A program made the translations under genes and the position numbers. Under the pieces are notes generated by a model that was not told the origin of the DNA, ran no database searches, and worked only from the letters and a program-made list of their open reading frames with translations. From positions 1-35,467 of IMG/VR virus record IMGVR_UViG_3300005077_000060: 35,467 bases of DNA, one strand, 5' to 3'. Positions 5,826 to 35,148 of this stretch are shown here, one piece after another. Each line of letters begins with the position of its first letter. Positions within the stretch are counted from its first letter, which is position 1. Source of the DNA: a virus. Its lineage: Duplodnaviria > Caudoviricetes.

Positions 5826-6071
5826 GTATTAACCATCTCTCATTCTTATAATATTTGTATAGAATATGATGGTCATCAACATTTCGAACCTATTGAAGTA
5901 TGGGGAGGAAAAGAAGCCTTTGAATTGGGTCAGAAGCGTGATGAAGTGAAAAATCAATATTGCAAAGAAAATGAAATTAGGTTAATATGTATTTCATATC
6001 GTCAATTTAACAACATTAAGTTGTTGCTTGATGATTTGATTTTGAAAGGAGTAGATAATGAAGTTGAATAG
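5826..6071 (+). pseudogene. Start-less 3' remnant of a PD-(D/E)xK (DUF559/Vsr-like) homing endonuclease
   Basis: Manual translation VLTISHSYNICIEYDGHQHFEPIEVWGGKEAFELGQKRDEVKNQYCKENEIRLICISYRQFNNIKLLL... matches the C-terminus of 27552-28493; it directly follows the TAA of the radical SAM ORF in the same frame. Confidence 0.85.
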
Positions 6072-7509: not shown

Positions 7510-10500
7510 ATGTTTAATCGAATTTTTTATGATCGAAAGAAGTCACAAATACATTTATGGGAAACTATAAATGGTAAGCGACTTCATCACACTTATGAAT
7601 TTGAACACGATTACTATATTGAAGATCCGTCTGGCAATTCTGATTTTATAGATATCTTTGGTAAACATGTCGTGCCACGTAAAGCACCTTCAAAACGATA
7701 CTTGAATGCTCTTACTCAACAGGGCATTTATTGTTGTGAGGCAGATTTACCGGAAGAATTTCGTTTTCTGCATAATCGGTATGAAGGTATGACTTTGAAG
7801 GCAGATATGTCACAATTTAATGTGTGTTTTCTTGATATTGAAATTGAAATTGAATCAGAATTTCCATGGCCTGATAAAGCAAAATATCCAATTAACCTCA
7901 TCACAATGTATTTTTCACGTACAGGACATCAATATACATTAGGTAATCGTGAATATACTGGCGACAGTCCAATGGTCAAGAATTATATGTTTATTCCAGA
8001 TGAGAAACGAATGATGCAACGATTTGTTGATATTTTTCGTAAAGAGAGACCAGATTTTCATACAGGTTGGAATTCACATGTATTTGATATACCTTACATC
8101 ATCAATCGTTGTCGTAAGATTGATGTAGATTATACTAAAATGTCACCCGTTGGGCACGTTGATGCCAACAAACACGGTGAATATCTTATTGGTGCTGTTG
8201 CTGATCTTGACTATCAACAGCTATACAAGAAGTTCACTTTTGATAAGAAAGATAGTTACACACTTCAAGCCATTGGTCAGCTTGAAGTAGGTGAAGGAAA
8301 GATCGATTATGAAGGTACATTGTATGATCACTACAAAAAAGATTGGAATAATTTTGTTGAATACAATGTACAGGATGTAATGCTTGTAAAGAAGATCGAT
8401 GATGAAAAGAAGTTTCTTGAATTAGTTGTAAATGTTTGCTATGAGTCACTTATTCCATTTGATCGTATATTCTCAACAATTGCTATGCATACAGGATATG
8501 CAATGAGTTATTTGCATAACCAAAAGATGGTTATGTCGCCTCGCAATAATACTCGAGGCACCGAAGTTCCAGGTGCATTTGTGTTTGCTTTGTCTGGTTT
8601 TTTTAAGTATTTAATTTCATTTGATGTCACATCATTGTATCCATTTGAGATTATAACATATAATATTGGTCCAGAAACTCTTCGCCTATGGCCAAAGGAT
8701 ACAACGAATCTTATTCGTACACCACTTTCAGAGTCTGATGGTATTTGGTATGATGGTACGAAACAAAGTGTTCTATCTCAAATTGTCGAGGAAATCTTTA
8801 ACACACGTGTTCGATTTAAGAATAAGATGAAAATTTGTGAACAGTGGGAACATGGTGTTGGTGCTAATGAGTATGCAACAATTGCTGACCGTGTAGGTAT
8901 AAGCGTTGAAGAAGCAGACCAGTTAGCAGCTGATATTGAAAAGGAACAAGGTAATGCTAAGTTCTATAATTCACAACAGCACATACGTAAGATTATGATT
9001 AATTGTTTTCATCCCTCAACTTGTATTATAACAGTTGATGGCATAAAACAGATCTCAGATGTAAAGGTTGGTGATATAGTTTATAGTATAAACAAACAAA
9101 CAAAAATGTTAGAAAAGAAAATAGTAGAGCATATTTATGTTTATGATTTTGATGGTGAATTAGAAACTATCCATAACAATCGTTTTAAAATCATGGTTAC
9201 TCCTGAACATACAATGCTTGCAACTACAAGAACTGGTAAAGTTAAAGAAATTAAAGCAAATGATTTTTGTCAACGAAGTATAAATTGTATACCAAATCAT
9301 CTAATTGTTAATCAAAAAACAGATGAAAAAGCTTTTTGCATACTTCCATTTATTGACAAAACAAAATATCAATTTGAGATTATTCACACTGAACATTTAA
9401 GTAAACTGAGGAAATTATTACCCTCAATTCATATAGCTAAATTACCCAAAAAAAATAGGTCACTGTTACAAGAAATTGATGAAAATATAGTAAAAGAAAT
9501 TTATGAACAAGGTTATAAAGTTATATGTAAACCAAAACGTGACTACAAATGTAAATCTACAGAAGTTATGTTATCTATAGACATATTTTCTAAATTTATT
9601 GGTTTTTATTTATCAGAAGGTCATTTATATAGTTCAACTAAAAAAACGTACAATACAACTGTAAGAGGTATAACTAACAGTATTTGTATTTCACAATGTC
9701 AAAATATTAATCCTAACACTTATGCTGAAATTTACGATGTGTGTAAATATTTGTCTCATAATATTCAAACAACACCAGAACGTATAACAATCAGCAATGA
9801 TGCTATTAGTGAAATGATTGCTAAAAATTTTGGTATTAAATACGATAAACATATATTTGGTGGTAAACTTATTGAACAACTTAATAAAAACATTATTTTT
9901 GAATCAATGTACAAAGGTGATGGTGTAAAAAAATATAACTGTTATGTGATAGGATGTAAATATAAACAATTATTTGAAGACACAATGAAATTGTTAGTAG
10001 AGATTGGTAGAATTCCGCGCTTTACAATAGATAAATTTTCAACTATTAGTTCATATAGAATTAGTTGGAATGAATGTGATATTTATACACAAAAAACAAA
10101 CTATAGTCGTACTCATTATGTAGGAAAAGTTCACAATATTACAGTTGCTGACAATCATACAGTTTTAGTAGGTTCAGATGGAACATTTGGTTGGACTGGC
10201 CAAAGTTTATATGGTGCTTGTGCTAATGAATACTTCCATTTCTACAATCCACACAATGCTAAATGCATTACACAAAGTGGTAAACATCTTATTCAGTATC
10301 TATCGAATACATTCAATGATTATTTCAAGGAATATTTTTGGAAGAATAAGAAATATTTCCCAGTAGCTGATGAAAAAAATAAGCTTAAAAGAGATGTTGT
10401 TGTGTTGATCGATACAGACTCAAATTATGTATGTCTTGAAGAGGTGATTGAGAAACTTGGTCTTACATTTAAAACCAACGAAGAATTTCATGCATGGGCA

Positions 10501-11277
10501 CTTATATTCATTAATGATTTTTTTGAGCCATTTATTAAGCAAATTCTTGAAGTATATGCAGAGGGATTTGGTACAAAACAACTCATTCACTTCAAGCGTG
10601 AAAAGATTATTTCACAGATGATGGTTGTTGCAAAGAAGCACTACGCTACTGAAGTGCTTGATAAAGAAGGTACGGTGTATCAAATTCCAAAATTAGAAGT
10701 TACTGGTATTGAAATTGTGAAAACAAGCACACCTTTATTTGTACGTAATAAACTAAAAACTTTTCTTAAAAATATTTTTACAAATAATGGCAATAATAGC
10801 GTTAAAGAGTTAATGTTAGAAGATTTACGAACCATACGTAAAGAATTCGAAAAAGCACCAATTGATCAAATAGCCAAGCCGTGTGGTTTGACAGATTACG
10901 ATAAGTATGGTAAATCAGGAGAATATTATAAACAACATGGTATTTCATATCCAAAAAAATGTCCACCACATCATAAAGCAGCCATCAATTATAATTATTT
11001 AATTGTGGTCAAAGGTTTGAAATTGTTACCAATTTCAAACGGTACTAAAATGAAATTTATTGCTGTAAAAAAGAATAATAAATTTGGTTTTGATCGTATT
11101 GCATTTATCAATAAGTGGCCTGAAGAATTTAGTGAATGGTTTGAAATTGACTATAATTCACAGTGGGAAAGCACTGCACAAACTCTTGTTGAAGGATGGT
11201 TTAAAGTTCTTAAATGGGGACCGGTTAATTTACAAAAATGTAAATTGAGTGAGATATGGAAAAAGAAAAATAAATAA
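7510..11277 (+). CDS. gp43: Family B DNA polymerase (gp43) containing an intein
   Basis: Exonuclease motifs DIE, GWN..FDIPY, YNVQD; polymerase motifs SFDVTSLYP, KIMIN|SLYG, IDTDS. Confidence 0.97.
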   Translation: MFNRIFYDRKKSQIHLWETINGKRLHHTYEFEHDYYIEDPSGNSDFIDIFGKHVVPRKAPSKRYLNALTQQGIYCCEADLPEEFRFLHNRYEGMTLKADMSQFNVCFLDIEIEIESEFPWPDKAKYPINLITMYFSRTGHQYTLGNREYTGDSPMVKNYMFIPDEKRMMQRFVDIFRKERPDFHTGWNSHVFDIPYIINRCRKIDVDYTKMSPVGHVDANKHGEYLIGAVADLDYQQLYKKFTFDKKDSYTLQAIGQLEVGEGKIDYEGTLYDHYKKDWNNFVEYNVQDVMLVKKIDDEKKFLELVVNVCYESLIPFDRIFSTIAMHTGYAMSYLHNQKMVMSPRNNTRGTEVPGAFVFALSGFFKYLISFDVTSLYPFEIITYNIGPETLRLWPKDTTNLIRTPLSESDGIWYDGTKQSVLSQIVEEIFNTRVRFKNKMKICEQWEHGVGANEYATIADRVGISVEEADQLAADIEKEQGNAKFYNSQQHIRKIMINCFHPSTCIITVDGIKQISDVKVGDIVYSINKQTKMLEKKIVEHIYVYDFDGELETIHNNRFKIMVTPEHTMLATTRTGKVKEIKANDFCQRSINCIPNHLIVNQKTDEKAFCILPFIDKTKYQFEIIHTEHLSKLRKLLPSIHIAKLPKKNRSLLQEIDENIVKEIYEQGYKVICKPKRDYKCKSTEVMLSIDIFSKFIGFYLSEGHLYSSTKKTYNTTVRGITNSICISQCQNINPNTYAEIYDVCKYLSHNIQTTPERITISNDAISEMIAKNFGIKYDKHIFGGKLIEQLNKNIIFESMYKGDGVKKYNCYVIGCKYKQLFEDTMKLLVEIGRIPRFTIDKFSTISSYRISWNECDIYTQKTNYSRTHYVGKVHNITVADNHTVLVGSDGTFGWTGQSLYGACANEYFHFYNPHNAKCITQSGKHLIQYLSNTFNDYFKEYFWKNKKYFPVADEKNKLKRDVVVLIDTDSNYVCLEEVIEKLGLTFKTNEEFHAWALIFINDFFEPFIKQILEVYAEGFGTKQLIHFKREKIISQMMVVAKKHYATEVLDKEGTVYQIPKLEVTGIEIVKTSTPLFVRNKLKTFLKNIFTNNGNNSVKELMLEDLRTIRKEFEKAPIDQIAKPCGLTDYDKYGKSGEYYKQHGISYPKKCPPHHKAAINYNYLIVVKGLKLLPISNGTKMKFIAVKKNNKFGFDRIAFINKWPEEFSEWFEIDYNSQWESTAQTLVEGWFKVLKWGPVNLQKCKLSEIWKKKNK
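9004..10203 (+). mobile_element. 400-aa intein with LAGLIDADG endonuclease in polymerase motif B; ends in Gln
   Basis: Starts CFHPST after KIMIN; block B VTPEH; LAGLIDADG-like FIGFYLSEG and MYKGDG; block F VHNITVADNH; ends WTGQ before +1 Ser (SLYG). Confidence 0.93.
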
Positions 11278-12440: not shown

Positions 12441-14288
12441 ATGTCAATAAATTATGAAGATCAAGAAATTACAATTGATCCGTTGTTTTTTGAGCAAATT
12501 ATAGTTAAAATATTATTTACTGATGCTAAGAAAAGGGATAAAATTATCCCCTTTCTTAAACCTAAGTTATTTAATGGTTTTGAAGTACAACAAATTATCA
12601 AACACATTCAGCGTTTTATAGAAACATATGGAACATTTCCTACATTCACTGAATTTAAAGTCGAAATTGAACACAAAGACTTACACAATTATCTTTTAAA
12701 ATGCTTGAATACAGATACTTCACAATTATCTGATGTACATTTATTGGATAAAATTGAATCATTTTTTAAACAGAATTTAGCATTTAATGCTATTGTTGAT
12801 GCAAAAATTCAACTTGAAGATAATAATATTGAACAAATGATTTTATATGCAGATAAATTACGTGAAGCTGTTAGTTTTAGTTTTAAAACAGATATTGGAC
12901 TTGATGTGTTGAGTGAAGAAGGCGAAGAAGAAATGTTTAACCATCTTCATGATCAAGATAAAGTTGTTCCAACTGGAATTGAATATTTTGATCAGATGAT
13001 TGAAGGTGGTTTTCATGAGAAATCACTATCGTTATTTTTAGCTGAATGTGTAACAAAAGACACTATAGTAAAGATTCGTGTGTTAAATTCTTCACATCAT
13101 CATGAGAATAAATGGATTGAAAAAGAAATATCCATAGGAGACATTCAACAATTATTAAAAGATTTTGAGGTTGAAGTATCTTCACCTGATGGTTATGTGC
13201 CAGTTAAACAATATATTTCTAAAGGTAAAAAAAGAATTTATAATGTTGTATGTGGTCAAAAAAGTATTAAATGTAGTGGAAAACACTTATTATTTACCAA
13301 TCGTGGGTGGGTAGCTGTAGAAGATATACAAAAAAAACACAAAATTTTAATGTCTTCTGGTAAATATGAAACTGCACATATATATCAACTGGATAAGAGT
13401 GAAGAAGTTGTTGATATAGCGGTTGATCATCCAAATCACCGATATTTTACTAATGGATTCACAAGTCATAATACAAATATGGGTAAGTCACTTATCATGG
13501 CTGGTTTAGCAGCCAATCAACTTATATTAAATAAGAATGTGTTGTATGTAACGTTGGAAATGTCACGACATAAAATGACAGAGAGAGTGTTGGCTAATTG
13601 TTTTGATTTAGATATAGACCAACTTAAATTACTTACACGTGAAAATTTTCATGCAAAATTTAATCGTTTACGTGAACGTATAAAACACAAACTTGTAGTG
13701 TTAGAATATCCAACACGAACAATTAGCACATCAACATTACGACAAGTTTATAAAGAATTAGAAATAAAAAAAGGTTTTAAACCTGATATTGTTTTTGTTG
13801 ATTATATGGGTATTATGTTACCTATACAAACTCGATCAGATGAAAATTCATATAGTGAACAAAAACGTGTAGCAGAAGAGTTACGTGGTTTAGCAGTTGA
13901 AACAGGAATTCCATGGGTTTCTGCAGTACAAACAAATAGAGGCGGTTTTGATTCTACTAATATTGATTTGAAAGATACTGCGGATTCAATTGGTACAGTA
14001 GCAACAGCTGATATTATTATTGGCGTAACACAATCAGATGAACAAAGACAATTTGGAAAATATAGTTGGATTATTCTTAAAAATAGGTATGGAATTAATA
14101 AACGAAAAACAACTATTGGTGTAAATTATAATAAAATGCGTATATTTGCTGATGAAAGTGTTTCTAATAAAGATCCAGAAAAGCAGTCCCAATCAACACG
14201 AATAGTTGATGAAGCAAGTAGTGTAGCTCTTGGAGTCAATAAAAAAAGTCGGGCAGCTGAACGAAAACAAGATTATAATTTTCACTGA
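12441..14288 (+). CDS. gp41: gp41-like DnaB-family replicative helicase containing a mini-intein
   Basis: Walker A LAE|TNMGKS, YVTLEMS, FVDYM, SAVQTNR, KNRYG. Confidence 0.95.
   Translation: MSINYEDQEITIDPLFFEQIIVKILFTDAKKRDKIIPFLKPKLFNGFEVQQIIKHIQRFIETYGTFPTFTEFKVEIEHKDLHNYLLKCLNTDTSQLSDVHLLDKIESFFKQNLAFNAIVDAKIQLEDNNIEQMILYADKLREAVSFSFKTDIGLDVLSEEGEEEMFNHLHDQDKVVPTGIEYFDQMIEGGFHEKSLSLFLAECVTKDTIVKIRVLNSSHHHENKWIEKEISIGDIQQLLKDFEVEVSSPDGYVPVKQYISKGKKRIYNVVCGQKSIKCSGKHLLFTNRGWVAVEDIQKKHKILMSSGKYETAHIYQLDKSEEVVDIAVDHPNHRYFTNGFTSHNTNMGKSLIMAGLAANQLILNKNVLYVTLEMSRHKMTERVLANCFDLDIDQLKLLTRENFHAKFNRLRERIKHKLVVLEYPTRTISTSTLRQVYKELEIKKGFKPDIVFVDYMGIMLPIQTRSDENSYSEQKRVAEELRGLAVETGIPWVSAVQTNRGGFDSTNIDLKDTADSIGTVATADIIIGVTQSDEQRQFGKYSWIILKNRYGINKRKTTIGVNYNKMRIFADESVSNKDPEKQSQSTRIVDEASSVALGVNKKSRAAERKQDYNFH
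13047..13472 (+). mobile_element. 142-aa mini-intein (no endonuclease) in the helicase P-loop
   Basis: CVTKDT start, block B CSGKH, block F VVDIAV, ends SHN before +1 Thr. Confidence 0.93.
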
Positions 14289-18984: not shown

Positions 18985-19137
18985 ATGATGGTAAAAAAGA
19001 AACACAAAGCTGGGTGGAGTCAAGGTGAATATTGTGTTATCAATAAACAAAAATATATTGGTGACAACATACCCATTTATCGGAGTTCATGGGAACACCG
19101 ATTTATGTGTTATATGAAAATTGCAGAAATTGTTTAA
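18985..19137 (+). pseudogene. 50-aa N-terminal fragment of a second gp4-like nuclease (absent from the ORF track)
   Basis: Manual translation MMVKKKHKAGWSQGEYCVINKQKYIGDNIPIYRSSWEHRFMCYMKIAEIV* aligns with the N-terminus of 19443-19940. Confidence 0.8.
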
Positions 19138-19426
19138 CACACAATATGTATTTAGCGGTTGTAAAAAGAAAAAATCATTACGGTTTGATTTCTTTTTGCC
19201 AAAACAAAATATATGTGTTGAATTTGATGGCAAACAACATTTTAAGGAAGGAGTTGGCAGTAATGTTGGCAAACATCAAATAACTTATAAAGATTGGTTA
19301 AACATATCTGAAAGGGATGCTATTAAAACACAATTTTGTTGTATACAAAATATTAAATTGCTTCGGATATCTTATAAACAAATGTCTATAATTAGTAACA
19401 TTCTTGAAGAAAGTCTATTAAATTAA
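19121..19426 (+). pseudogene. Isolated nuclease domain of the PD-(D/E)xK homing endonuclease family
   Basis: RFDFFLP..NICVEFDGKQHF...ERDAIKTQFC...IKLLRISY; no DNA-binding repeats; TTG start only. Confidence 0.75.
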
Positions 19427-19442
19427 TAAATGGTTTAAATAA

Positions 19443-19940
19443 ATGAATATGAATATAAAACATAACCAAGGATGGATGCAGAGTATTTATCAGTTTAAAG
19501 ATATGCAGAATGCAAAAAAATATTTAGGAACAAAACCACCTATCTGTAGAAGTAGTTGGGAAAGACGGTTTTGTAGTTGGTGTGATTTAAACAACAAGGT
19601 ATTGATGTGGGGATCAGAACGTGTAAAGATTCCTTATATTTGGCAAGGCAAACCACACACATATTATACTGATTTTTTTGTTATTCTTATAGACAATAAC
19701 AACAATATACGTAAATTTATAATTGAGATTAAACCACATGGTCAAGGACCTTTTGCTAACAAAAAAGGACAAATCAGCAGACCACGTGAGCCAAAAAACC
19801 GCACTGTTAAAGCACTCAAACGTTATTTATATGAGGTGCAACGGTGGGAAAAGAATGCTGCTAAATGGGCGGCTGCACAATCATATTGTGCACATCATAA
19901 TCTTGAATTCATTATCCTTTCTGAGGAGGATTTACTTTGA
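19443..19940 (+). CDS. gp4: gp4-like head completion nuclease (TnsA-N-like PD-(D/E)xK)
   Basis: RSSWE, WGSE..KIPY, YYTDF, IEIKP, N.AKW.AA, ILSE. Confidence 0.92.
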   Translation: MNMNIKHNQGWMQSIYQFKDMQNAKKYLGTKPPICRSSWERRFCSWCDLNNKVLMWGSERVKIPYIWQGKPHTYYTDFFVILIDNNNNIRKFIIEIKPHGQGPFANKKGQISRPREPKNRTVKALKRYLYEVQRWEKNAAKWAAAQSYCAHHNLEFIILSEEDLL

Positions 19941-20119
19941 TGCATATAGTACAAGCCTTAATGCGTCCTATCAATTCATTTACACTTGAAGAAATAGATG
20001 AAGCAATAATGTACATACAAAGATTGATTGATAGTAAACGATTTTCTTATGACCTCACAATCCTTACAAATCGCATGCATGACCTCCAAGAACGAAAGGA
20101 ATTTGAGCAATGTCAATAA
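19937..20119 (+). CDS. Small hypothetical protein
   Basis: 60-aa ORF overlapping both neighbours, consistent with translational coupling. Confidence 0.55.
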   Translation: MMHIVQALMRPINSFTLEEIDEAIMYIQRLIDSKRFSYDLTILTNRMHDLQERKEFEQCQ

Positions 20120-20673
20120 CTTCAAAAATACTTGATACAAAATTCATGTATCCTTTTACTGCATCATTCCTTGACTATCCTAATGCAGAAGATATTGCTG
20201 TTCTTATCTTTATGATGGGTTGTAATCACAATTGTGATGGTTGTCAGAATCCATTATTTCAAAATCCAGACTACAATGAACAAACGAAACAATTTACACG
20301 TGAAAGTTTAATTAGTGAAATTAAAAAAGCGTGTAAGAAGTTTCACACTACTAAGATTGTTCTTACTGGTGGCGATCCACTGTTTGTAAAGAATTTGGAA
20401 GCTACTAATTGTATACTCAAAGATCTTCGCAACGAGTATGACATTTGCATATATACTGGTTATAGTATTGTAACTGTTGCTCAATATAATTTTATACGCG
20501 GCTTTAAGTATATTGTTTGTGGAGTGTTTGATTTGACAAAAGCTGTGCAGTCAGAAAAGACCGATGATTATATTCAACTCGCCAGTACAAATCAAGAAAT
20601 TTATGACGGCGGCTTTTTTCGGATGACTGACGGAAAGGGTCGTATGTACTTTAATCCAAAGGAGAACCATTAA
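20110..20673 (+). CDS. nrdG: Anaerobic ribonucleotide reductase activating enzyme
   Basis: GCNHNCDGCQN, LTGGDPL, IYTGY, ASTNQ; adjacent to nrdD. Confidence 0.92.
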   Translation: MSITSKILDTKFMYPFTASFLDYPNAEDIAVLIFMMGCNHNCDGCQNPLFQNPDYNEQTKQFTRESLISEIKKACKKFHTTKIVLTGGDPLFVKNLEATNCILKDLRNEYDICIYTGYSIVTVAQYNFIRGFKYIVCGVFDLTKAVQSEKTDDYIQLASTNQEIYDGGFFRMTDGKGRMYFNPKENH

Positions 20674-21837
20674 ATGTTTACAGATGATAATGCAACTACA
20701 TTGCGTACACTTCGTAATATTAGAAAATGTATTAGAAATAGATTGAGAGATTATCATAGCATTGAGGATAAAAAGGTAGAAACGATGGTTGATGATATTC
20801 TACAGATTCATGGAATCCACAAAGACCACTTTGATTTTCTTTCTCGCATTGATACGTTTATCACTGGTGTGTTAAATGACAAATCAATTGATGCAAATAG
20901 CAATAAGAATGAAAAAACGACCGAAGCAGTGATGCAAGAATCACTCGCGCCTGTTCGTAAGGCTATTGGTTTTGATTACTTGTATAGAGAGCTTCGTGAA
21001 CTATATGGTAAATCGAAAGCTCAGGAACTTATGGCTGAGATATTTGACTATTCTCTTGGACTTTCTGATTCTACAAACATTCTTCGTCCATACTGTTGGG
21101 CATTAGATGCCTCAAAGATTGTTACTATTGGTCGAGATTTTGGACAACTTCATTCAGCTCCATCTAACCGTGTGCAGAGTTATATTTCAGCACTCTGTGA
21201 AACAATTCATCAAATGAGTTCTCATTTAGCTGGTGCTATTGCAATTGGTTCTTTCTTTCTGGACATTGCACATGTGTTATTGTTCGGTAAAGAAAAATTA
21301 GATTTAATTGAACTTCGAACAGGTAAACGATTCCGAAAAATGCTTGAAAATGAGTTTCAGCAGTTTGTACATTCAGTAAATCACCTGTCAAGAAACGGAG
21401 TTGAGAGTCCGTTTACTAATCTTTCTATTTTTGATAGAGTTAAACTTCGTACATTATTGAAAGATATGAAGTGGTATTTTCCTTTTGATCAACTACCAAT
21501 CGATCATCCTCAAGATTTAGATGAACAACAAGCAGAAGATTTTTACATAAATTATGTTGTTGATTATATTATAGAAATTCAAGATATTTTTTTGGATTTC
21601 TTTGATAAAGGTGATCCATTGCGTGGGTCAAGTCCTTACCGGTTTCCAGTTTGTACCCTGAACTTATCGAAAGTATCAATGGAAGGATATGACATCGAGC
21701 TTGAAGATGGTACCACCCGGTTTATCCCGGAAAACCAGCTTATTTACGCTATGAACAACGAAACACATGAAAAAATTCGTAAACCAGCGAAAGATATTTT
21801 TGAAGAAAACAACAACGTTTACAGTGTTAAATTATAA
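20674..21837 (+). CDS. nrdD: Class III ribonucleotide reductase, N-terminal part, with a ~55-aa foreign C-terminal tail
   Basis: DANSN, PYCWALD, FQQFVHSVN...R..VESPFTN, YRFPVCTLN; no ATP cone. Confidence 0.9.
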   Translation: MFTDDNATTLRTLRNIRKCIRNRLRDYHSIEDKKVETMVDDILQIHGIHKDHFDFLSRIDTFITGVLNDKSIDANSNKNEKTTEAVMQESLAPVRKAIGFDYLYRELRELYGKSKAQELMAEIFDYSLGLSDSTNILRPYCWALDASKIVTIGRDFGQLHSAPSNRVQSYISALCETIHQMSSHLAGAIAIGSFFLDIAHVLLFGKEKLDLIELRTGKRFRKMLENEFQQFVHSVNHLSRNGVESPFTNLSIFDRVKLRTLLKDMKWYFPFDQLPIDHPQDLDEQQAEDFYINYVVDYIIEIQDIFLDFFDKGDPLRGSSPYRFPVCTLNLSKVSMEGYDIELEDGTTRFIPENQLIYAMNNETHEKIRKPAKDIFEENNNVYSVKL

Positions 21838-21938
21838 GCGCTCTTAGGAACAGCTTATGTGTAAACTACAACAACACACTTGTTCGTATTTCATATCAAG
21901 ATTATGATAACATTAGCAATATTTTTGGAGGAACAAAT
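21838..21938 (+). pseudogene. Extreme 3' remnant of the homing endonuclease family between the nrdD halves
   Basis: Reads ALRNSLCVNYNNTLVRISYQDYDNISNIFGGTN in frame with nrdD-C, compared with DIKSQWCLENNIKLLRIAYNQQNQITQLL in the intact copy; contains the GGAGGA RBS of nrdD-C. Confidence 0.7.
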
Positions 21939-23006
21939 ATGTCCTATCAACAAATAAAAAAGGTTACAAAAACAACGAAGTACATTATCGGAGATACTAA
22001 GTTTCTTAAGAAGGCTTGTCGTCGTGATATTTTTCGCTACAACATCTTTGCTTCAGAAGGCACTAAGGTAGCAAGCTGTTGCCGTTTGATCAACAACAAA
22101 GAGATGTTGGACTACGCATCACAATCAAATAGTTTCGGTGGTGTTGGTATATCTATCGGTTCACACCGTGTTGTGACAGTTAACTTTGCTCGTATTGCTC
22201 TTGAAGCAAAGACAGAAAAAGACTTTTTCACCATTCTCGATTTACGAACCGAAAATGCTGCAAAGATTCTTGCCGGTCATAAAGCGTTAATTAGACGTCT
22301 TTGTGATAAAGGACTCCAACCATTCATCGCAAATGGATGGATTAATATGAATCGTTTATTTTCAACATTTGGTATTCTTGGTATTGTAGAAGCGGCTCAA
22401 ATTTTTCAGGGCAAGTTTGGTAATGGTCGTGATATCATTGGTGATTTTTTGAAATATTATAATAAAAAAGTTAATGAAGTGTCAGAAAAGTATAATATTA
22501 TTGGCAACATTGAACAGATTCCAGGTGAGTCATTTGCCATCCGTTTGGCTAAAGCTGATCGATTGCTTTACGGTGAAAATCAAGTACCATTTAAATTATA
22601 TGCTAATCAGTTTGTACCTCTTTGGAATGATGCTTCACTATGGGAACGTATGAAACAGGATGGCAAATATAATCAACTTATTACTGGTGGTTCGATTGTG
22701 CATGCGCAGATAGGTGAGAAGGTTACACCAAAGCAGGCTGAAAAAATTATTCAATATGCTGTTGAGTGTGGCTGCGAACATTTTGCGCTCAATGCTGTTT
22801 ATAGTGAATGTGAAAAAGGTTGTACAACGTTAGGAAAGAATAATGTGTGTTCGGATTGTGGCGCACCTATCATAGAATACTATACAAGAGTTATAGGATT
22901 TTTTAGTCCCGTAAGTGCTTGGCAGGATGTCCGACGGGAATGGGAGTTCCCGCGTAGAACCTTCATAGATCTCAAAGAAATTGAAGATGTTAATAATGTA
23001 TATTGA
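21939..23006 (+). CDS. nrdD: Class III ribonucleotide reductase, C-terminal part
   Basis: ASCCRL active-site loop, IGSHRVVTVN, EQIPGES, zinc ribbon, glycyl-radical motif TRVIGF; own GGAGGA RBS. Confidence 0.92.
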   Translation: MSYQQIKKVTKTTKYIIGDTKFLKKACRRDIFRYNIFASEGTKVASCCRLINNKEMLDYASQSNSFGGVGISIGSHRVVTVNFARIALEAKTEKDFFTILDLRTENAAKILAGHKALIRRLCDKGLQPFIANGWINMNRLFSTFGILGIVEAAQIFQGKFGNGRDIIGDFLKYYNKKVNEVSEKYNIIGNIEQIPGESFAIRLAKADRLLYGENQVPFKLYANQFVPLWNDASLWERMKQDGKYNQLITGGSIVHAQIGEKVTPKQAEKIIQYAVECGCEHFALNAVYSECEKGCTTLGKNNVCSDCGAPIIEYYTRVIGFFSPVSAWQDVRREWEFPRRTFIDLKEIEDVNNVY

Positions 23007-23166
23007 AATATTTGGAATGACAACTTTGAAATTCTATTGATCGAAGATGTTAAAAAAAGATTGATTCTTATACTAAACATAAAGTAAATTATAGACAGTT
23101 AACTGAACGAGATTTTACGGGTAAGTTTAAATTAAGATATCAAGAAAAATTAAAGGAGTGGTTTTT

Positions 23167-23901
23167 ATGAAAATGGTTGAGTTCTTCAAAAGTATACAGG
23201 GCGAGGGCAACAGTCAAGGTGTTAATGCCCTCTTCATCCGCTTCCCCGGCTGTAATTTGCGGTGTAGGAGCTGCGATACTCCTATGTCATGGAAGAAAGT
23301 TGAAGCTACTGAATATGATGAACAATTGATTTTAAGTGAATCTCAGGAAACTAATCTTGTTGTTTTTACTGGAGGAGAACCTCTTCTTCAAGGCAATCTT
23401 TTAAATGCAATGAAAGTTATGGACTCTAATCGTAATCAACGTTATGAAATTGAAACAAATGGAACTATTCCAATTGATATCAAAAAGTGGGATGATTTGT
23501 GGATTACTGGGATTGGTCGTTGGAATTCTGAATCAATGAATCCTCTTCGTACACTAAATCTTCAGTTCAATATTTCACCCAAAGAAAACTTTGAACAAGA
23601 AGCTAATTTAAATACCACACCTGTTTTAATTCCCGGTATACAAGCTATCAATCACTCATTTCCTAATATTAAATATATTGTAAAATACCTCTTCAACAGC
23701 AAAGAGGATATCGAGCACATTGCTCGACAAACTGAGTTTTATCATATTCCTCGTCATCTGATTTGGCTTCAGCCAAAAGCAACCATGGCTGATGATGTAG
23801 TGAGTATCGTTAAGGAACATTTTAATGATATTGTTAAACGAGGTTGGAATATTTCTATGAGAACACACGTGTTGTTATTCAATGATAAGAAGGGGGTATA
23901 A
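23167..23901 (+). CDS. queE: 7-carboxy-7-deazaguanine synthase (radical SAM)
   Basis: FKSIQGEG, FIRFPGCNLRCRSCDT, TGGEPLLQ, IETNGT, ISPK, LQP, RTH; ATG at 23167 after AAGGAG. Confidence 0.93.
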   Translation: MKMVEFFKSIQGEGNSQGVNALFIRFPGCNLRCRSCDTPMSWKKVEATEYDEQLILSESQETNLVVFTGGEPLLQGNLLNAMKVMDSNRNQRYEIETNGTIPIDIKKWDDLWITGIGRWNSESMNPLRTLNLQFNISPKENFEQEANLNTTPVLIPGIQAINHSFPNIKYIVKYLFNSKEDIEHIARQTEFYHIPRHLIWLQPKATMADDVVSIVKEHFNDIVKRGWNISMRTHVLLFNDKKGV

Positions 23902-23982
23902 GGGTATAATATGAAACTATTTGTATTGATAAACAATTTGTTGAATCAGAATGAACAAAAATAAGAAAATAAAGGAGACCAA

Positions 23983-24198
23983 ATGAAATATACACAAGAA
24001 TCGTTAAACAATATTTTTACTTACAACTCACCAAAAAATGACCAACCACTACGATATCAAATTATTCGTGAAGAAGGTCGTCGTTTTGCTTCACTTATTC
24101 TTGATAATTGTCCAGCACATTCGAGCCGTGATGAAGCAATTGATAAAATTCGAGAAGCTGTGATGTGGGCAAATGCAAGTATAGCAATTAACGAATAA
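23983..24198 (+). CDS. Small helical-hairpin protein resembling the Acb2/Tad1-like anti-defence sponge family
   Basis: FTY..P...Q..RY..IR.....FA.LI...CP...R..AI.KI.EAVMWANASIA pattern; strong RBS. Confidence 0.6.
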   Translation: MKYTQESLNNIFTYNSPKNDQPLRYQIIREEGRRFASLILDNCPAHSSRDEAIDKIREAVMWANASIAINE

Positions 24199-24207
24199 GG
24201 AAATAAT

Positions 24208-24402
24208 ATGTCGGAATGTGATAGTAGATCATGGTTTGCAAGTCAATGTGTTTGTGAATGTGGATATAATGTTGTAGTCACACAACCTTCACCGGAAAGC
24301 GGAATGGATTGCTGGTGGTATTGTTCAAACAAACTATGTAAAAATCACGTAGGTGAACAAACAGGAGATATGGAAAAACCTGATTGGTTAAGACAGATAT
24401 AA
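24208..24402 (+). CDS. Small Cys-rich (putative Zn-binding) hypothetical protein
   Basis: CECG...YCSNKLCKNH; in-operon position. Confidence 0.6.
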   Translation: MSECDSRSWFASQCVCECGYNVVVTQPSPESGMDCWWYCSNKLCKNHVGEQTGDMEKPDWLRQI

Positions 24403-24420
24403 TAATTTAAAGGAGTTAAA

Positions 24421-24888
24421 ATGAAAATTTGCAAGACATATGAAACAGAAACAGCACATCGAGTTTTAAATGCAGAATCCATTAGGTGCGCACAAGGTCC
24501 TCATGGACATAGTTATAAATGGGAAATTGAAATTGAAGGTCCAATAAATCCAGATACAGGAATGATTATTGATTTTGGTTCTTTAAAGCCTATTAAACAA
24601 ATGATTGATAAATTTGATCATGCTTATGTATTTTGGCAAAAAGAAGATCCAGAAATTATTGAATTTTTTAAAAAACATTTTAAACGTCTTATTATTATGA
24701 AACAAAATGTAACAGCTGAAAATATGGCTCGTTGGGCACACCGGTGGATAAATTTATGGTTATCATCAAATAAAAAGGGTAGATATAAAATTAATAATAT
24801 TAAAGTTTGGGAAACACGTACTGGTTGTGCTGTTGCTGATTATTCTACTGAAGAAGATCAGTTAATTTATGTACATGAAGAACCTTAA
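24421..24888 (+). CDS. queD: 6-carboxy-5,6,7,8-tetrahydropterin synthase
   Basis: AHRV...C...HGHSY, GMIIDF..LK, FDHA, TAENMA, VWET. Confidence 0.93.
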   Translation: MKICKTYETETAHRVLNAESIRCAQGPHGHSYKWEIEIEGPINPDTGMIIDFGSLKPIKQMIDKFDHAYVFWQKEDPEIIEFFKKHFKRLIIMKQNVTAENMARWAHRWINLWLSSNKKGRYKINNIKVWETRTGCAVADYSTEEDQLIYVHEEP

Positions 24889-25310: not shown

Positions 25311-25806
25311 TGAAAAATATTTTATGACGTGGAATGAAGTGCTGGAAAGAATAAAGTATGTTGATAAACCATCTAACATTATTTACGGTATACCACGTGG
25401 TGGAGCTTGTTTGACAGTAGCATTTCAACATGCAAAAATAACTTGGGATGTTACTAAAGCAAATTTAATCATCGATGATATTGTGGATTCGGGTTCAACA
25501 AGAACAAAATATTTACAACTATATCCACACGCTAAATTTTGGGCCCTTGTTAATAAGTTGCCTTATCAAGAAGAACGATGTATTTCTTCTTGGTGTCATA
25601 TTAATGATGCTAAACTTCCCTACATAGTTTTCCCGTGGGAAACAGATAAAGATGAAACAGTTGAAGAACACATCACTCGTATATACCAAATAGTAAACAG
25701 TGGCCATCAATTTGATCAAGATGAATATGATTGTTTTGAACTTGCAGTAAAAAATTTTATCAAACAAATAGTTAATCCATTATATGAATTTAAGGAGGAT
25801 AAATGA
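25303..25806 (+). CDS. Purine phosphoribosyltransferase (Gpt/Xpt-like)
   Basis: YGIPRGG, PRPP loop LIIDDIVDSGST, YIVFPWE. Confidence 0.85.
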   Translation: MNNEKYFMTWNEVLERIKYVDKPSNIIYGIPRGGACLTVAFQHAKITWDVTKANLIIDDIVDSGSTRTKYLQLYPHAKFWALVNKLPYQEERCISSWCHINDAKLPYIVFPWETDKDETVEEHITRIYQIVNSGHQFDQDEYDCFELAVKNFIKQIVNPLYEFKEDK

Positions 25807-26186
25807 ATATCAATCCAATGGAAGTGTTGAAACGTGGTATCATTATAGCACCTAAGGATTACCCTTTAGTGACAGATTTTAAGGAAAAAGAATGTCAAAT
25901 TAGCAGTAATGGTATTGATCTACGAATTAACGAAACGGTAGTGATTGAACCTAAGTCTTTTAAAAATGTTGAAATTATGGAGCGCTTTAACATGGATGGT
26001 GTTTTTGGCGCAATATGGATTCGTAGTTCATTTAGTAGACGTGGAATATTCCATACTGCGGGTTTATTTGATGATGGGAATGAAAAACTAAAAATAACAT
26101 TAAACAATATGAGTGAAGATGCTATTATGATTGAAAAAGGAACACGAATTTGTCAGATGGTGTTTTTCAAGACTTCCGTTTTTTAA
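25803..26186 (+). CDS. dut: dUTPase/dCTP-deaminase-fold protein, copy A (motifs 1, 2 and 4 intact; no C-terminal arm)
   Basis: NGIDLR, RSSFSRRG, HTAGLFDDG, GTRICQMVFF, then stop. Confidence 0.8.
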   Translation: MNINPMEVLKRGIIIAPKDYPLVTDFKEKECQISSNGIDLRINETVVIEPKSFKNVEIMERFNMDGVFGAIWIRSSFSRRGIFHTAGLFDDGNEKLKITLNNMSEDAIMIEKGTRICQMVFFKTSVF

Positions 26187-26589
26187 TGGCAAATGTTTTA
26201 CATTTACCCAGTGGTTACGCTTAAAGGAACATGATGATTTAAAGACACAGTGGTGTAATGATAGTCACGTACAACTTATTCGTATCAATTATAAACAACA
26301 AAGTAAAATAGCAAGTATATTAAATGAAAGTATTCTTTTAAACAAGAAAGGTAAGATTTACAATATGAAACTTAAAAATTTTATTATTGGTGAAAATGTA
26401 GAATGGACACAAAATGGTGTTTTATTGCGAATCAATGAAACAGTAACTATTAATTTGAAATCTTTTAAAAATGTTGAAATTATGGAGCGCTTTAACATGG
26501 ATGGAGTTTTTGGTGCGATTTATATTGATAATGATTTTCATATGAAATATCCTCAATGTTGGCACACCGCGGGTTTATTTGATGATGGG
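25956..26589 (+). repeat. Direct repeats shared by the two dUTPase-like copies
   Basis: 44-nt identity at 25956-25999 and 26461-26504; 21-nt identity at 26058-26078 and 26569-26589. Confidence 0.9.
26185..26364 (+). pseudogene. 3' remnant of the homing endonuclease family between the two dUTPase-like copies
   Basis: NGKCFTFTQWLRLKEHDDLKTQWCNDSHVQLIRINYKQQSKIASILNE matches the C-terminus of 27552-28493; in frame with copy B. Confidence 0.8.
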
Positions 26590-26775
26590 TTTGGCGTTGG
26601 TATTAGTGGTGGGTCAATTGGTGGTGTATCACTTTACAATTTTGGTGATGAAGCCATTACAATAGAAAAAGGTACCAGAATTTGTCAAATGGTATTTTTT
26701 GAATCTAATCCAGCAAAGAAATATGACGGTTTCTATAATCAAAATCAGACTATCAAATCACAATACGAGAAATAA
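26365..26775 (+). CDS. dut: dUTPase/dCTP-deaminase-fold protein, copy B (motifs 1 and 2 degenerate; motif 3 loop and C-terminal arm intact)
   Basis: NGVLLR, IDND in place of IRSS, HTAGLFDDGFG, GTRICQMVFF, KYDGFYNQNQ; probable start at ATG 26365. Confidence 0.78.
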   Translation: MKLKNFIIGENVEWTQNGVLLRINETVTINLKSFKNVEIMERFNMDGVFGAIYIDNDFHMKYPQCWHTAGLFDDGFGVGISGGSIGGVSLYNFGDEAITIEKGTRICQMVFFESNPAKKYDGFYNQNQTIKSQYEK

Positions 26776-27139: not shown

Positions 27140-27499
27140 ATGGAAGCACAAGTAGTAGTTTCATTGCAAATGGATGGCATACATAGTTGGCCGAGCTGCC
27201 CTTTCGAAGAGGTAGCTTTTTTACGTAATGAACACCGTCATGTTTTTCACATCAAATGTTGGAAAAATGTGCGACATAATGACCGAGATGTGGAAATAAT
27301 TATGCTTAAACGTAGAATACAAGAAACGATGATTGAATATTGGGGTGAACCTTCAAAGAATCCGGGTGTACGTATGCCAATATTAAAATTTGGTGCTATG
27401 TCATGTGAGATGATTGCTGAAAAACTCATTCATACCTTTGATCTCAGTTCATGTGAAGTTCTCGAAGATGGAGAGAATGGCGCTTTAATTTCCTGTTAA
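27140..27499 (+). CDS. dpdL: QueD-like T-fold protein of the DpdL type (putative CDG decarboxylase)
   Basis: LRNEHRHVF (LxxxHRHxF), DRDVEII, SCEMIA, EDGENGA; a canonical queD is also present. Confidence 0.7.
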   Translation: MEAQVVVSLQMDGIHSWPSCPFEEVAFLRNEHRHVFHIKCWKNVRHNDRDVEIIMLKRRIQETMIEYWGEPSKNPGVRMPILKFGAMSCEMIAEKLIHTFDLSSCEVLEDGENGALISC

Positions 27500-27500
27500 A

Positions 27501-27553
27501 ATATAAATATATTTGACGTGGTAAAACTTACTTACATGGAGAAATATTTATAT
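27501..27553 (+). promoter_or_regulatory. T4-type late promoter TATAAATA with a hairpin that can sequester the endonuclease start codon
   Basis: TATAAATA at 27502-27509; ATATAAATAT (27501-27510) is the exact reverse complement of ATATTTATAT (27544-27553), which overlaps the ATG. Confidence 0.75.
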
Positions 27554-28493
27554 GAGAAGGAGAATTTGTAGCACTGAAGAATTGTTGCATGTTTTAAGAG
27601 TAGAGGGATATGCAAAGTACGATTATTCGAATGCTGTTTGGACCGGCAAAATCACTAATAAAATTCAGATATTGTGTCCAAAACACGGTGTTTTTTATCA
27701 GAGAATAAATGATCATCTTCGTGGTCAACGGTGTCCGAAATGTAAATTTGAAAAACTTAGTCAAAAATTTCGTCTTACTACTAAAGATTTTGTCTCTAAA
27801 GCTAAACTAATTCATGGTGATAAGTATGATTATTCACGTGTTCAATATCAAAATGATCACGCACCAATTACAATAGTTTGTCCAAAACACGGTGAATTCA
27901 TACAACGGCCACACAACCATCTACATGATCGTTGCGGATGTCCAAGTTGTGGTAATGTTAAACATCTTACTACTAAAGATTTTGTCTCTAAAGCTAAACT
28001 AATTCATGGTGATAAGTATGATTATTCATGTGTTCAATATAGAAATACTCAAACTAAAATTACAATAGTTTGTCCAAAACACGGTGAATTCATACAAATT
28101 CCTACAAAACATTTGCAGGGAAATGGATGTCCTCAATGCAATGAATCAAAAGGAGAGCGTCAAATTCGTTTGTGGTTGGAACAAAATCACATTGAACATG
28201 AATATCAAAAACGTTTTGATGGTTGTCGATATAAATTACCACTTCCCTTCGACTTTTGGTTACCACAACAAAAAATGTGTATTGAGTATGATGGCATTCA
28301 ACATTTTGAAGAAGGAATTGGAAATTTTTTTCAAGGACAATACACATTTACAAGAAAAATGTGGAAAAGTTTATCTGAAAGAGATGATATTAAATCTCAA
28401 TGGTGTTTAGAAAACAATATTAAATTGTTACGGATTGCTTATAATCAGCAAAATCAAATTACACAATTATTAAAAAGGTTTGTTTGTTTATGA
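27552..28493 (+). mobile_element. Free-standing putative homing endonuclease: three Zn-binding CPKHG...CPxC repeats plus a C-terminal PD-(D/E)xK (DUF559/Vsr-like) nuclease
   Basis: Repeats KYDYS...I.CPKHG.F.Q...HL....CP.C; SKGE, FDFWLP, IEYDGIQH, LLRIAY. Confidence 0.85.
27773..28028 (+). repeat. Intragenic tandem duplication with a 192-bp period
   Basis: 64-nt exact identity at 27773-27836 and 27965-28028. Confidence 0.9.
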
Positions 28494-29909: not shown

Positions 29910-30875
29910 ATGAATACTAATAATTTACCTGATGTGCAAAATGACCCTGACAGCAATCATCCAAAATTGTCAATAAATAAGGTTGGTGTGAGAAATATAA
30001 GAGTACCGTTTAGATTATTGTGTAAAGATGGGTCTACTATTACGACCAGTGCTAAAGTGTCAAGTTATTGTAATTTAACACAATCCTTACGCGGAATTAA
30101 TATGTCCAGAATTTCACGCACCATCAATGATGTTTTAGATCGTCAAACATCAACAGGTTTTGCTGGTTTAGAAAACTTTGCTTATGAATTACAAAAAGCT
30201 CATGGCACTGATAACATCTGGATTAAAGCTCATTTTGAGTTTGTTTTTAAAGATAAAACACCACTATCAGGCATTTTAAGTTATGAACCAATAAAAGTCA
30301 CGTTTGAAAGTATACTCAAAGGAAGTGATATTAAAAATTACGTAACAGTAGAAACTGTTGAAATGAGTCTTTGTCCATGCTCGAAAGAGATGTCAATGTT
30401 GAAAAACAATCTTACAAATAAAGAAATGGCGGAAATTGCTGTAATACAGGATGATGGTTTGCGTCAGAAAATTTTATTAGCTGGTTTTGGTGCTCATAAT
30501 CAAAGATCTAATATTCAGGTAAAGGTAGAACTTGCTTCTGATCGTAGTGCACTAATGTGGATTGAAGATATCGTTGAAATTATCAAGAAGGGTGCATCGT
30601 CACCAACGTGGTCAACTTTGAAGAGACCTGATGAAAAGTGGGTCACAGAAGTGAGTTACATGGGTGGTTATTTTAATGAAGAATATAAGTTTATTGAAGT
30701 TGGTGGTGGACCAAAATTTGTTGAAGATATTGTTCGACATATTGCTGTGGAATTAAATGTTGAACTTGATAAACGTATTACTGATTATTGTATAGTTGTA
30801 AATAACGAAGAAAGCATACACAGCGGTGATATTATGGCTACCAGTATTATGACTGCTGGTAGAAAAATGTCGTAA
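29910..30875 (+). CDS. folE2: GTP cyclohydrolase IB
   Basis: LPDVQ, INKVGV, RGINMSR, SLCPCSKEMS, AHNQRS, LKRPDE, PKFVEDIVR, EESIH. Confidence 0.95.
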   Translation: MNTNNLPDVQNDPDSNHPKLSINKVGVRNIRVPFRLLCKDGSTITTSAKVSSYCNLTQSLRGINMSRISRTINDVLDRQTSTGFAGLENFAYELQKAHGTDNIWIKAHFEFVFKDKTPLSGILSYEPIKVTFESILKGSDIKNYVTVETVEMSLCPCSKEMSMLKNNLTNKEMAEIAVIQDDGLRQKILLAGFGAHNQRSNIQVKVELASDRSALMWIEDIVEIIKKGASSPTWSTLKRPDEKWVTEVSYMGGYFNEEYKFIEVGGGPKFVEDIVRHIAVELNVELDKRITDYCIVVNNEESIHSGDIMATSIMTAGRKMS

Positions 30876-33232: not shown

Positions 33233-33496
33233 GTGTGGGATAGAGATAGTATTAAAAAATATTTAGAAAAATTAAAAGAGGAAGAAAGAATTCGTTGTCC
33301 ACATTGCAATTTTGATAATTCTTTTGATGGCAATGGTTTTGAAATGAGTGAAACAGGAATCAAAATATCTTATAATGGTTGGCCAGATGAAGAAGACCAA
33401 ATAATTGAATGTCAAGAATGTGGTGAAAAATTTAAAGTTCGTGAACATGTTAGAAGAACATTTGATACATGTAAAGTTAATGAGGAATTTGAGTAA
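33233..33496 (+). CDS. Small zinc-ribbon protein
   Basis: CPHC...CQECG; GTG start after GGAGG. Confidence 0.65.
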   Translation: MWDRDSIKKYLEKLKEEERIRCPHCNFDNSFDGNGFEMSETGIKISYNGWPDEEDQIIECQECGEKFKVREHVRRTFDTCKVNEEFE

Positions 33497-35148
33497 TGAA
33501 AATATTGAAAAATGCTGGTAAGTTTGAAGTCCTAACAAAACCTGAAAATGTTATTAAAGATATTACAACAGCAGCACGAACTTGTTATCAATCTCAAGAT
33601 AAAAGTACTCCAGAGTCAGATAAGAAGCTCGTTGAAAACTTGATGAAGCGAGAACACTTTGCAATGTTTGAGTTCAGTCATATGAATGTTCGCTTCAGTG
33701 ATGTTTGTCGTGGATTTACTCATGAAATGGTTAGACATCGTTTGGCTTCCTTTGCGCAGGAAAGTACCAGATATAATTGTTATTTAAAAACAAAAATACC
33801 TTTAGGATTTAAAAAGATTGATTCTAAAAAAAGACATAAAAATTGTAAATTAACTGTAGAAGAAGAAAAATGGTGTTGTGAAAAATATAAAGAAGGTTAT
33901 AGTCTTTCTGAATTATCCAATGCTGTTAAGATAGATGATACAAGTGTTTATAGATTATTAAAATATTATAATGTTGAACTTAGAAAAAATGATGCTTTTT
34001 CAAAAGGTATCAATGATGATTATTTTAAAAATATTGATTCTAATGAAAAAGCATATTTAATCGGTTTTATTGCGGCTGATGGTAGTCTAAGAAATCAAAT
34101 AATAATATATCAAGCGAGAGAATCGTTTAATATTTTGAGTTATTTTCTCAGAGAAATAAATCCTAACGGAAATTTATGTTTTTCGGAATCACATAACGAA
34201 AAATCTCAGGATATGTTCTCGTTGTTTATAGGTAGTAAAAATAATATTAATTATTTAAATAAATTAGGTATACCTAACGGTAAAAAATCTAAAACTCTCA
34301 ATATTCAAAATATTTTAAATAATATAGATGAAAAATATTGGTCATACTTTTTTAGAGGTTTATTTGACGGTGATGGTCATGTATCAGCAAACGGTACAAA
34401 GATTTGTTTAAGTGGAAATGAACAAACGTGTAAAATTTTTAAAAATATTGTTCAAAAAAAAGTTGGTATTCAAAATAATGTTAAAATATATAAGGATGAA
34501 AATAAAAATTGTAAAATTTATTATTCATCACTTTCTGATACAAAATTGATTTTAAATTGGTTGTATTCTGAACCATTACCGTTGTTTTTTGCAAAAAAAA
34601 TGTTTAGAGCATCTAAAAATTGTTCCAAAGTGTTGAATGTATTAAAAGATTCTGTTTATTTATATGCTAAAGAATTTGGGTTTATTATTGATGATAGATT
34701 TATAAATGAACATTCTTTGAATGATTATTTGTTTAGTATGTATTGGTCGCAAAGAAATTACAAAACTTTAAGTGAAGCTGGTTGGAAACCTGAAGATGCT
34801 CGTCAAGTCTTACCAATAGCAACTCGCTCTCAAATTGTTGTTGGTGCCAACATTAGAGAATGGCGTCATATATTCCACATGAGATGTGACCACTTTGCAC
34901 ATTGGGAAATACGTGCAGTAATGCTTAATCTCCTTCGTTGGTGTCAAGAAAATATTCCTCTTGTATTTGATGATTTTAAATTCTTTACAACTAAAGATGG
35001 TAAAGAATATGCACGTAGAATTATACCAGCAAGAAAAATTGCTAACATGATTGAAGAAAATGAAGACATAAAAGAAATTATAGATAATTTAACAGTTAAT
35101 AATCAATTGAAGATGTTCAAGCACCTTCAATCAATACATTGGAGGTAA
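33496..35148 (+). CDS. thyX: Flavin-dependent thymidylate synthase with an internal LAGLIDADG insertion
   Basis: AARTCY, H.AMFEF, HEMVRHRLASFAQESTRY, PEDARQVLP, NIREWRH...R....AHWEIR. Confidence 0.93.
   Translation: MKILKNAGKFEVLTKPENVIKDITTAARTCYQSQDKSTPESDKKLVENLMKREHFAMFEFSHMNVRFSDVCRGFTHEMVRHRLASFAQESTRYNCYLKTKIPLGFKKIDSKKRHKNCKLTVEEEKWCCEKYKEGYSLSELSNAVKIDDTSVYRLLKYYNVELRKNDAFSKGINDDYFKNIDSNEKAYLIGFIAADGSLRNQIIIYQARESFNILSYFLREINPNGNLCFSESHNEKSQDMFSLFIGSKNNINYLNKLGIPNGKKSKTLNIQNILNNIDEKYWSYFFRGLFDGDGHVSANGTKICLSGNEQTCKIFKNIVQKKVGIQNNVKIYKDENKNCKIYYSSLSDTKLILNWLYSEPLPLFFAKKMFRASKNCSKVLNVLKDSVYLYAKEFGFIIDDRFINEHSLNDYLFSMYWSQRNYKTLSEAGWKPEDARQVLPIATRSQIVVGANIREWRHIFHMRCDHFAHWEIRAVMLNLLRWCQENIPLVFDDFKFFTTKDGKEYARRIIPARKIANMIEENEDIKEIIDNLTVNNQLKMFKHLQSIHWR
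33775..34665 (+). mobile_element. In-frame HTH + LAGLIDADG homing endonuclease domain inside thyX with no recognisable Hint domain (boundaries approximate)
   Basis: HTH YKEGYSLSELS...VYRLLK; AYLIGFIAADG and FFRGLFDGDG; visibly more AT-rich than the flanking thyX sequence. Confidence 0.85.

Follow-up and report, generated by a model that had tools for sequence, protein, structure and literature searches.

How a class III ribonucleotide reductase (NrdD) whose gene is broken into two pieces, each carrying a foreign end at the break, could be assembled without protein splicing is the question raised by this locus. The window (the whole stretch of DNA that was analyzed, 35,467 nt) is a linear virus record encoding a T4-like replication module, which comprises DNA polymerase B, RecA, DnaB, gp32, primase, RNase H, and the clamp loader. 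Intein-like domains were found in three genes of the window; positions 7510-11277, 12441-14288, and 33496-35148 hold intein-like domains (DNA polymerase B, DnaB) and a LAGLIDADG domain within ThyX. Genes for QueE-like radical SAM, QueD-like, and FolE2 proteins (23158-24888, 27140-27499, and 29910-30875) suggest a 7-deazaguanine DNA-modification pathway.

The pieces of nrdD are all encoded on the plus strand, and a gene for an nrdG-like radical SAM activase (20110-20673, plus strand; PF13353, E value of 4.9e-16; PF04055, E value of 1.7e-8) lies directly 5′ of them. ORF1 (20674-21837; PF13597, E value of 5e-14) encodes chain 1 of 387 aa, and ORF2 (21939-23006; PF13597, E value of 9e-53) encodes chain 2 of 355 aa, with a GGAGGA ribosome-binding site (21927-21932) placed 6 nt 5′ of its ATG at 21939. 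A preliminary description of this DNA had reported these two separately initiated ORFs and the ribosome-binding site, which was borne out; an endonuclease remnant in the spacer, described below, had been overlooked. Chain 1 consists of the NrdD N-half (aa 1 to 333; 20674-21672; PF13597) and a 54-aa non-NrdD tail (aa 334 to 387; nt 21673-21834, with the stop codon extending to 21837). Chain 2 begins with a basic leader of 13 aa (21939-21977), a candidate first strand of a C-intein fragment, followed by the C-half with the finger loop and Zn ribbon (21978-23006), to which the PF13597 match of ORF2 belongs. Alignment to Thermotoga maritima NrdD (4COI) places the PYC cysteine, C141 (nt 21094-21096; aligned with T. 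maritima Cys125), on chain 1 and the SCCR motif (22074-22085), finger loop, Zn ribbon, and glycyl-radical motif (radical Gly at 22896-22898) on chain 2, in agreement with the division of motifs proposed earlier. T. maritima Cys125 is universally conserved, and the motif roles are those given in the available portion of PMC4493059. Because the catalytic residues are divided over chains 1 and 2, activity would need both chains.

A close relative, P0240 (locus L010), encodes an unsplit NrdD of 679 aa with only a short loop at the break site. It shares 85% identity with chain 1 (282/333) and 90% with chain 2 (303/337), and it lacks both the tail and the leader, which had been quoted correctly as non-NrdD segments. 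The foreign sequence amounts to a net of ~62 aa (a 54-aa tail plus a 13-aa leader, less about five host residues that they replace). Rough dN/dS values against L010, which take in the time before the split, were 0.083 for the N-half and 0.059 for the C-half; both halves are under purifying selection relative to the unsplit relative. A recently broken pseudogene in which the tail is debris would be in keeping with the several decayed endonuclease insertions and gene stubs in the window, and the split is known from one contig only; however, neither half is damaged, the ribosome-binding site of chain 2 is strong, no catalytic motif has been lost, dN/dS stays under 0.1, and nrdG adjoins, and we consider decay of this kind very improbable.

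Among the NrdD homologs listed (the best 120 of 424 and the best 120 of 2179 matches), most are ~670 aa long and unsplit, and many of the shorter ones represent genuine split inteins located at SC|C. No second nrdD copy split at the same break site was found among the listed homologs, the homolog segments, and the viral contigs searched. True inteins of the NrdD family occupy other sites, FPV|C a short way upstream and SC|C ~40 aa downstream. In L002 (3986-7726), P0002, and P0239, nrdD is truly fractured, with split inteins at SC|C, and the last two represent an intein-split allele with near identity to the unsplit P0240. In L003 (5500-5901; also in P0035 to P0037 and P0042), NrdD is broken at a second site, close to reference residue 511, where the N-part ends in a ~51-aa tail followed by an endonuclease-like ORF and the C-part lies beyond the contig; the L003/P0035 tail keeps a His at the block-B position, and 3 of 3000 shuffles score as well with a block-B profile. 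An nrdD homolog in L074 (853-2685) has many in-frame stops and no frameshifts, which may reflect stop-codon reassignment.

The spacer between the two NrdD ORFs is 101 nt long, and the frame of chain 2 is open from 21831 (36 codons, no start codon), overlapping the last codons of chain 1. The spacer frame matches the C-terminal end of Vsr-like endonucleases; against a profile of four such proteins (from the window and loci), it scored 18.2 bits, a value reached by none of 5000 shuffles (maximum of 9.1). The matching stretch comprises 28 codons (21843-21926, plus strand), and when its nucleotides were aligned with those of the endonuclease at 19118-19426 (3′ end), GGAGGA fell on the last codons of the remnant. 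Judged by the profile match, the spacer is what is left, at the 3′ end, of a gene for a Vsr-like (EDxHD-type) homing endonuclease, and an enzyme of this type likely made the break in nrdD. Since the frame of the remnant remains open over 36 codons, the nuclease may have been deleted recently, and the persistence of the tail therefore says little about selection.

The same reading-frame overlap is a point in favor of a single chain, with the frames joined by ribosomal bypass, a frameshift, or an RNA intron or separated by an assembly indel. Several observations speak against this: there is no XXXYYYZ slippery site in 21828-21837, the spacer corresponds to an endonuclease end, chain 2 has its own ribosome-binding site, the spacer RNA has nothing unusual in its structure (z = −0.91), no Rfam intron match came near the gathering score, and the stop of chain 1 sits where N-intein fragments end. 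We regard a single chain as extremely improbable. A group I or group II intron was rejected on the same z value and Rfam result, together with a spacer length of only 101 nt.

The Vsr-like nuclease family is represented by five pieces in 35 kb, the nrdD remnant and four more. The segment 18985-19940 opens with a 5′ stub (50 aa) of the gene for a head-completion/TnsA-like nuclease, continues with a Vsr-like endonuclease C-half (19118-19426), and closes with a full divergent gene copy (19443-19940), whereas the relative L001 has a single full copy of the head-completion/TnsA-like gene; this arrangement looks like a nuclease-driven gene replacement. Two dUTPase/dCTP-deaminase-like copies are located at 25803-26775, with a Vsr-like remnant in frame before the second one, as with nrdD chain 2. 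A further Vsr-like remnant lies at 5826-6071, and 27552-28493 encodes a Vsr-like endonuclease that looks intact and has DUF723 repeats.

The tail was compared with the N2 (block-B) lobe of inteins by using three profiles built in turn from fetched inteins, of which only the third gave a significant match. Profile 1 (16 N-intein fragments from one site) scored 4.3 bits, with 82 of 2000 shuffles as good, and profile 2 (16 block-B windows) scored 1.2 bits, with 669 of 3000 as good; profile 3 (37 more diverse block-B windows) scored 11.8 bits, which was equaled by 1 of 3000 shuffles. Among 781 natural C-terminal 54-mers ranked with profile 3, the tail came second, behind a true N-intein and ahead of another NrdD tail, at a second break site, while the rest scored at most 6.8 bits. 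When 8516 internal windows were scored, those reaching at least 9 bits were intein pieces, apart from the tail itself, a borderline window, and two NrdD windows that overlap each other. Alignment by hhalign to the 37-sequence block-B profile gave a probability of 71.9% and a pairwise E value of 3.4e-5 over tail residues 6 to 50 (45 columns, gapless), and its score of 23.2 was matched by none of 250 natural C-terminal tails (maximum of 15.0). In this alignment the PENQ of the tail sits in the TxxH register of block B, so that the intein-like register claimed earlier for the tail is upheld. The end of the tail coincides with the stop of true N-intein fragments in the same NrdD family.

Catalytic elements are missing throughout. 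The tail sequence lacks the N-terminal Cys/Ser of block A, and a block-A lobe profile did not match it (hhalign, 0.3%); PENQ replaces the TxxH of block B; and block F, block G, and the terminal (H)N-C/S/T are absent from chain 2, which is back in NrdD after 13 aa (compared with 30 true C-fragments of the NrdD family). Canonical splicing is impossible because block A, TxxH, block F, and the terminal (H)N-C/S/T are missing, as had been recognized at the outset. A circularly permuted reading of the tail as block F plus block A, raised by a short block-F-like match, was discarded; the block-A profile is unmatched, and the spacing fits N2.

No Hint match to the tail was obtained in Pfam, NCBIfam, PHROGs, or PDB sequences; with phmmer, the tail recovered nothing but itself among 1.84 billion representatives; no relatives were found in longer proteins or viral contigs, and annotated phages gave one match at an E value of 2; the ESM Atlas returned only NrdD-fragment clusters with low feature counts. 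A single-sequence AlphaFold2 model of the tail (pLDDT of 57) gave a best Z of 2.5 with Foldseek/VIA-align (RMSD of 4.4, 49 aligned residues), with no Hint chain listed. The weak or absent signal from two of the three profiles and the two to three non-intein windows among 8516 that score 9 to 12 bits leave some room for tail and leader being foreign peptides from an endonuclease cassette, or a small β-rich insert, whose intein likeness is due to chance and composition. This is quite improbable in view of the gapless 45-column, lobe-specific alignment that ends at the natural N-intein stop and the rank of 2 in 781; from these profile comparisons we consider it rather probable that the tail is of Hint origin.

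In split inteins, the N2 lobe pairs with the first strand of IntC. Against a 55-sequence profile of this strand the leader scored 4.6 bits, and the match is not significant because 41 of 627 natural N termini score as high; the earlier identification of the leader with the strand that begins split-intein C-fragments is thus not sustained, and the sequence is compatible with a derivation from it. The leader has a net charge of +4 over 14 aa, opposite in sign to the tail (net charge of −5). These values agree with the way charge is distributed between N2 and IntC in split inteins, as reported for the Npu DnaE split intein, with opposite charges on the N2 lobe and IntC, in the available text of PMC11923092.

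The break site was further examined in distant NrdD proteins. The segment from FPxxTxN to YN measures 19 to 36 aa in 220 of 223 distinct homolog segments and 46 aa in one; the two long ones are L146 (87 aa) and P0038 (92 aa), compared with 90 aa for the sum of the two pieces in the window. P0038 and L146 are distant NrdDs whose corresponding loop holds a contiguous insert equal in net length, and by eye their inserts share the start and end register and the order of elements with the tail plus leader; the L146 insert, also by eye, keeps the His at the block-B position. The contiguous half-Hint insertions that the preliminary description had suggested looking for at this site therefore exist as inserts but have no significant match to inteins: with the P0038 insert, 296 of 2000 (profile 1) and 941 of 3000 (profile 2) shuffles were as good, and with the L146 insert, 474 of 3000 (profile 3; hhalign, 0.8%). 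A BLASTP alignment of the tail with L146 covers only the host motif and the first hairpin (12/28). The P0038 insert had no match in annotated phages, and the search with the L146 insert found only itself, with nothing in the ESM Atlas. The single-sequence AlphaFold2 model of the P0038 insert (pLDDT of 65) is a β-meander whose best Z was 5.4 (Foldseek and VIA-align; RMSD of 3.1, 78 aligned residues), with no Hint chain listed, a result that counts in favor of an insert unrelated to Hint.

In a quick IQ-TREE phylogeny of host N-halves (49 of 53 rows, the four without the motif being left out), the three insert hosts are far apart, and the NrdD of the window groups with the insert-free P0240 and P0003 (SH-aLRT of 97 and 100). 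Such scattered hosts are consistent with a mobile element or with a tolerant loop that acquired its inserts independently. We put forward, as a tentative and somewhat doubtful scenario, that a half-Hint module without catalytic capacity is mobile and spreads from one phage nrdD gene to another in place of an intein; it would start as a one-chain insert at the tip of a surface loop, admit a nuclease at the position of the intein endonuclease, and then become a two-piece clasp free of splicing. The window would show the final stage, with the nuclease gone and the gene divided for good, and P0038 and L146 would be unsplit forms of the same element.

Two known systems and one family of inteins provide the closest comparisons. 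In the nrdA-a/mobE/nrdA-b locus of Aeromonas phage Aeh1, as described in the accessible sections of Crona et al. (PMC3045599), the tails are essential for activity but not for association of the halves; they were proposed to be degenerate-intein remnants, and no database match was found. The nrdD locus resembles that case in several respects: an RNR gene is broken by a homing endonuclease, the foreign ends at the C and N termini carry opposite charges and are absent from unsplit homologs, there is no splicing, and the active site is composite. It differs in the host, class III NrdD instead of class Ia, and in the nuclease, Vsr-like and almost wholly deleted instead of HNH; furthermore, the tail is longer and detectably N2-like, whereas the Aeh1 NrdA-a tail is not (0.14%), which again speaks for an origin unrelated to Hint, and the window is known from sequence alone. 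In the fractured genes of Dassa et al. (2009; PMC2677866, in the part available), a free-standing endonuclease of the Vsr-like or GIY-YIG type lies between the halves of a split intein, and one intein-less SbcD-like case has foreign ends of 25 and 9 aa. Shared with them are two host ORFs with an endonuclease in between (here as the 28-codon 3′ remnant), a Vsr-like 3′ end abutting the downstream start, and later loss of the nuclease; unlike those with split inteins, nrdD lacks blocks A, F, and G and the block-B catalytic residues, and no trans-splicing occurs. Naturally split inteins (Npu DnaE and Aes PolB1, from the same portion of PMC11923092) also have an acidic N2-like end, a basic strand-like start, and a break at the endonuclease position, whereas only one lobe is present here and no chemistry is possible. 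By analogy, the split nrdD is best classed as a fractured gene working like Aeh1 NrdA-a/b and not as a split intein.

The mechanism that we propose, at about even confidence, is that nrdD was cut by a Vsr-like nuclease within an inserted, splicing-dead half-Hint and that the chains are made separately and held noncovalently, helped by pairing of the acidic tail with the basic leader. The ~62-aa module would have sat at the tip of a tolerant surface loop. An endonuclease gene would have entered this preexisting or cotraveling module at the position of the intein endonuclease, which is the split-intein break point, and would later have been mostly deleted. In the resulting protein, the leader would add a strand completing the lobe, the host loop arms would be extended as an interchain antiparallel pair, and the composite active site (Cys141 of chain 1; finger loop and Gly radical of chain 2) would form without ligation.

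The extent to which assembly depends on the foreign ends is the point at which a passenger role has to be weighed. The tail could be a Hint-lobe relic that is dispensable together with the leader, the α/β-barrel halves joining through their own large interface. The Aeh1 NrdA-a/NrdA-b heterodimer forms without tails (same sections of PMC3045599), the leader offers just 13 aa to pair with, and the endonuclease loss looks recent from the open remnant frame, so that no long-term retention is shown; yet the Aeh1 tails are still essential for activity, the charges of tail and leader are opposite, and the hydrophobic register of the lobe is kept over 45 tail residues. On balance we find a passenger role unlikely, and from their sequences the tail and leader likely help to hold the NrdD halves together.

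The statement in the preliminary description that such an arrangement had not been described was too strong, since splicing-free RNR assembly tails with a proposed degenerate-intein origin appear in the consulted text of Crona et al. (PMC3045599). No description of a natural half-Hint docking module was found in the literature searched, most subscription papers being outside its scope. To the earlier cases this locus adds a host enzyme of RNR class III, an unsplit control that is very closely related, a nuclease-loss end state, and contiguous inserts of the same length, and the unsplit P0240 allows a clean controlled comparison. If docking by tail and leader is true, it would give a molecular identity to the "assembly tails" of genes in pieces, for which a degenerate-intein origin was proposed in Aeh1 and not shown, and would provide a small natural peptide pair (54 plus 13 aa) for noncovalent protein assembly. 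It would also mean that the recognition half of an intein can persist apart from its chemistry.
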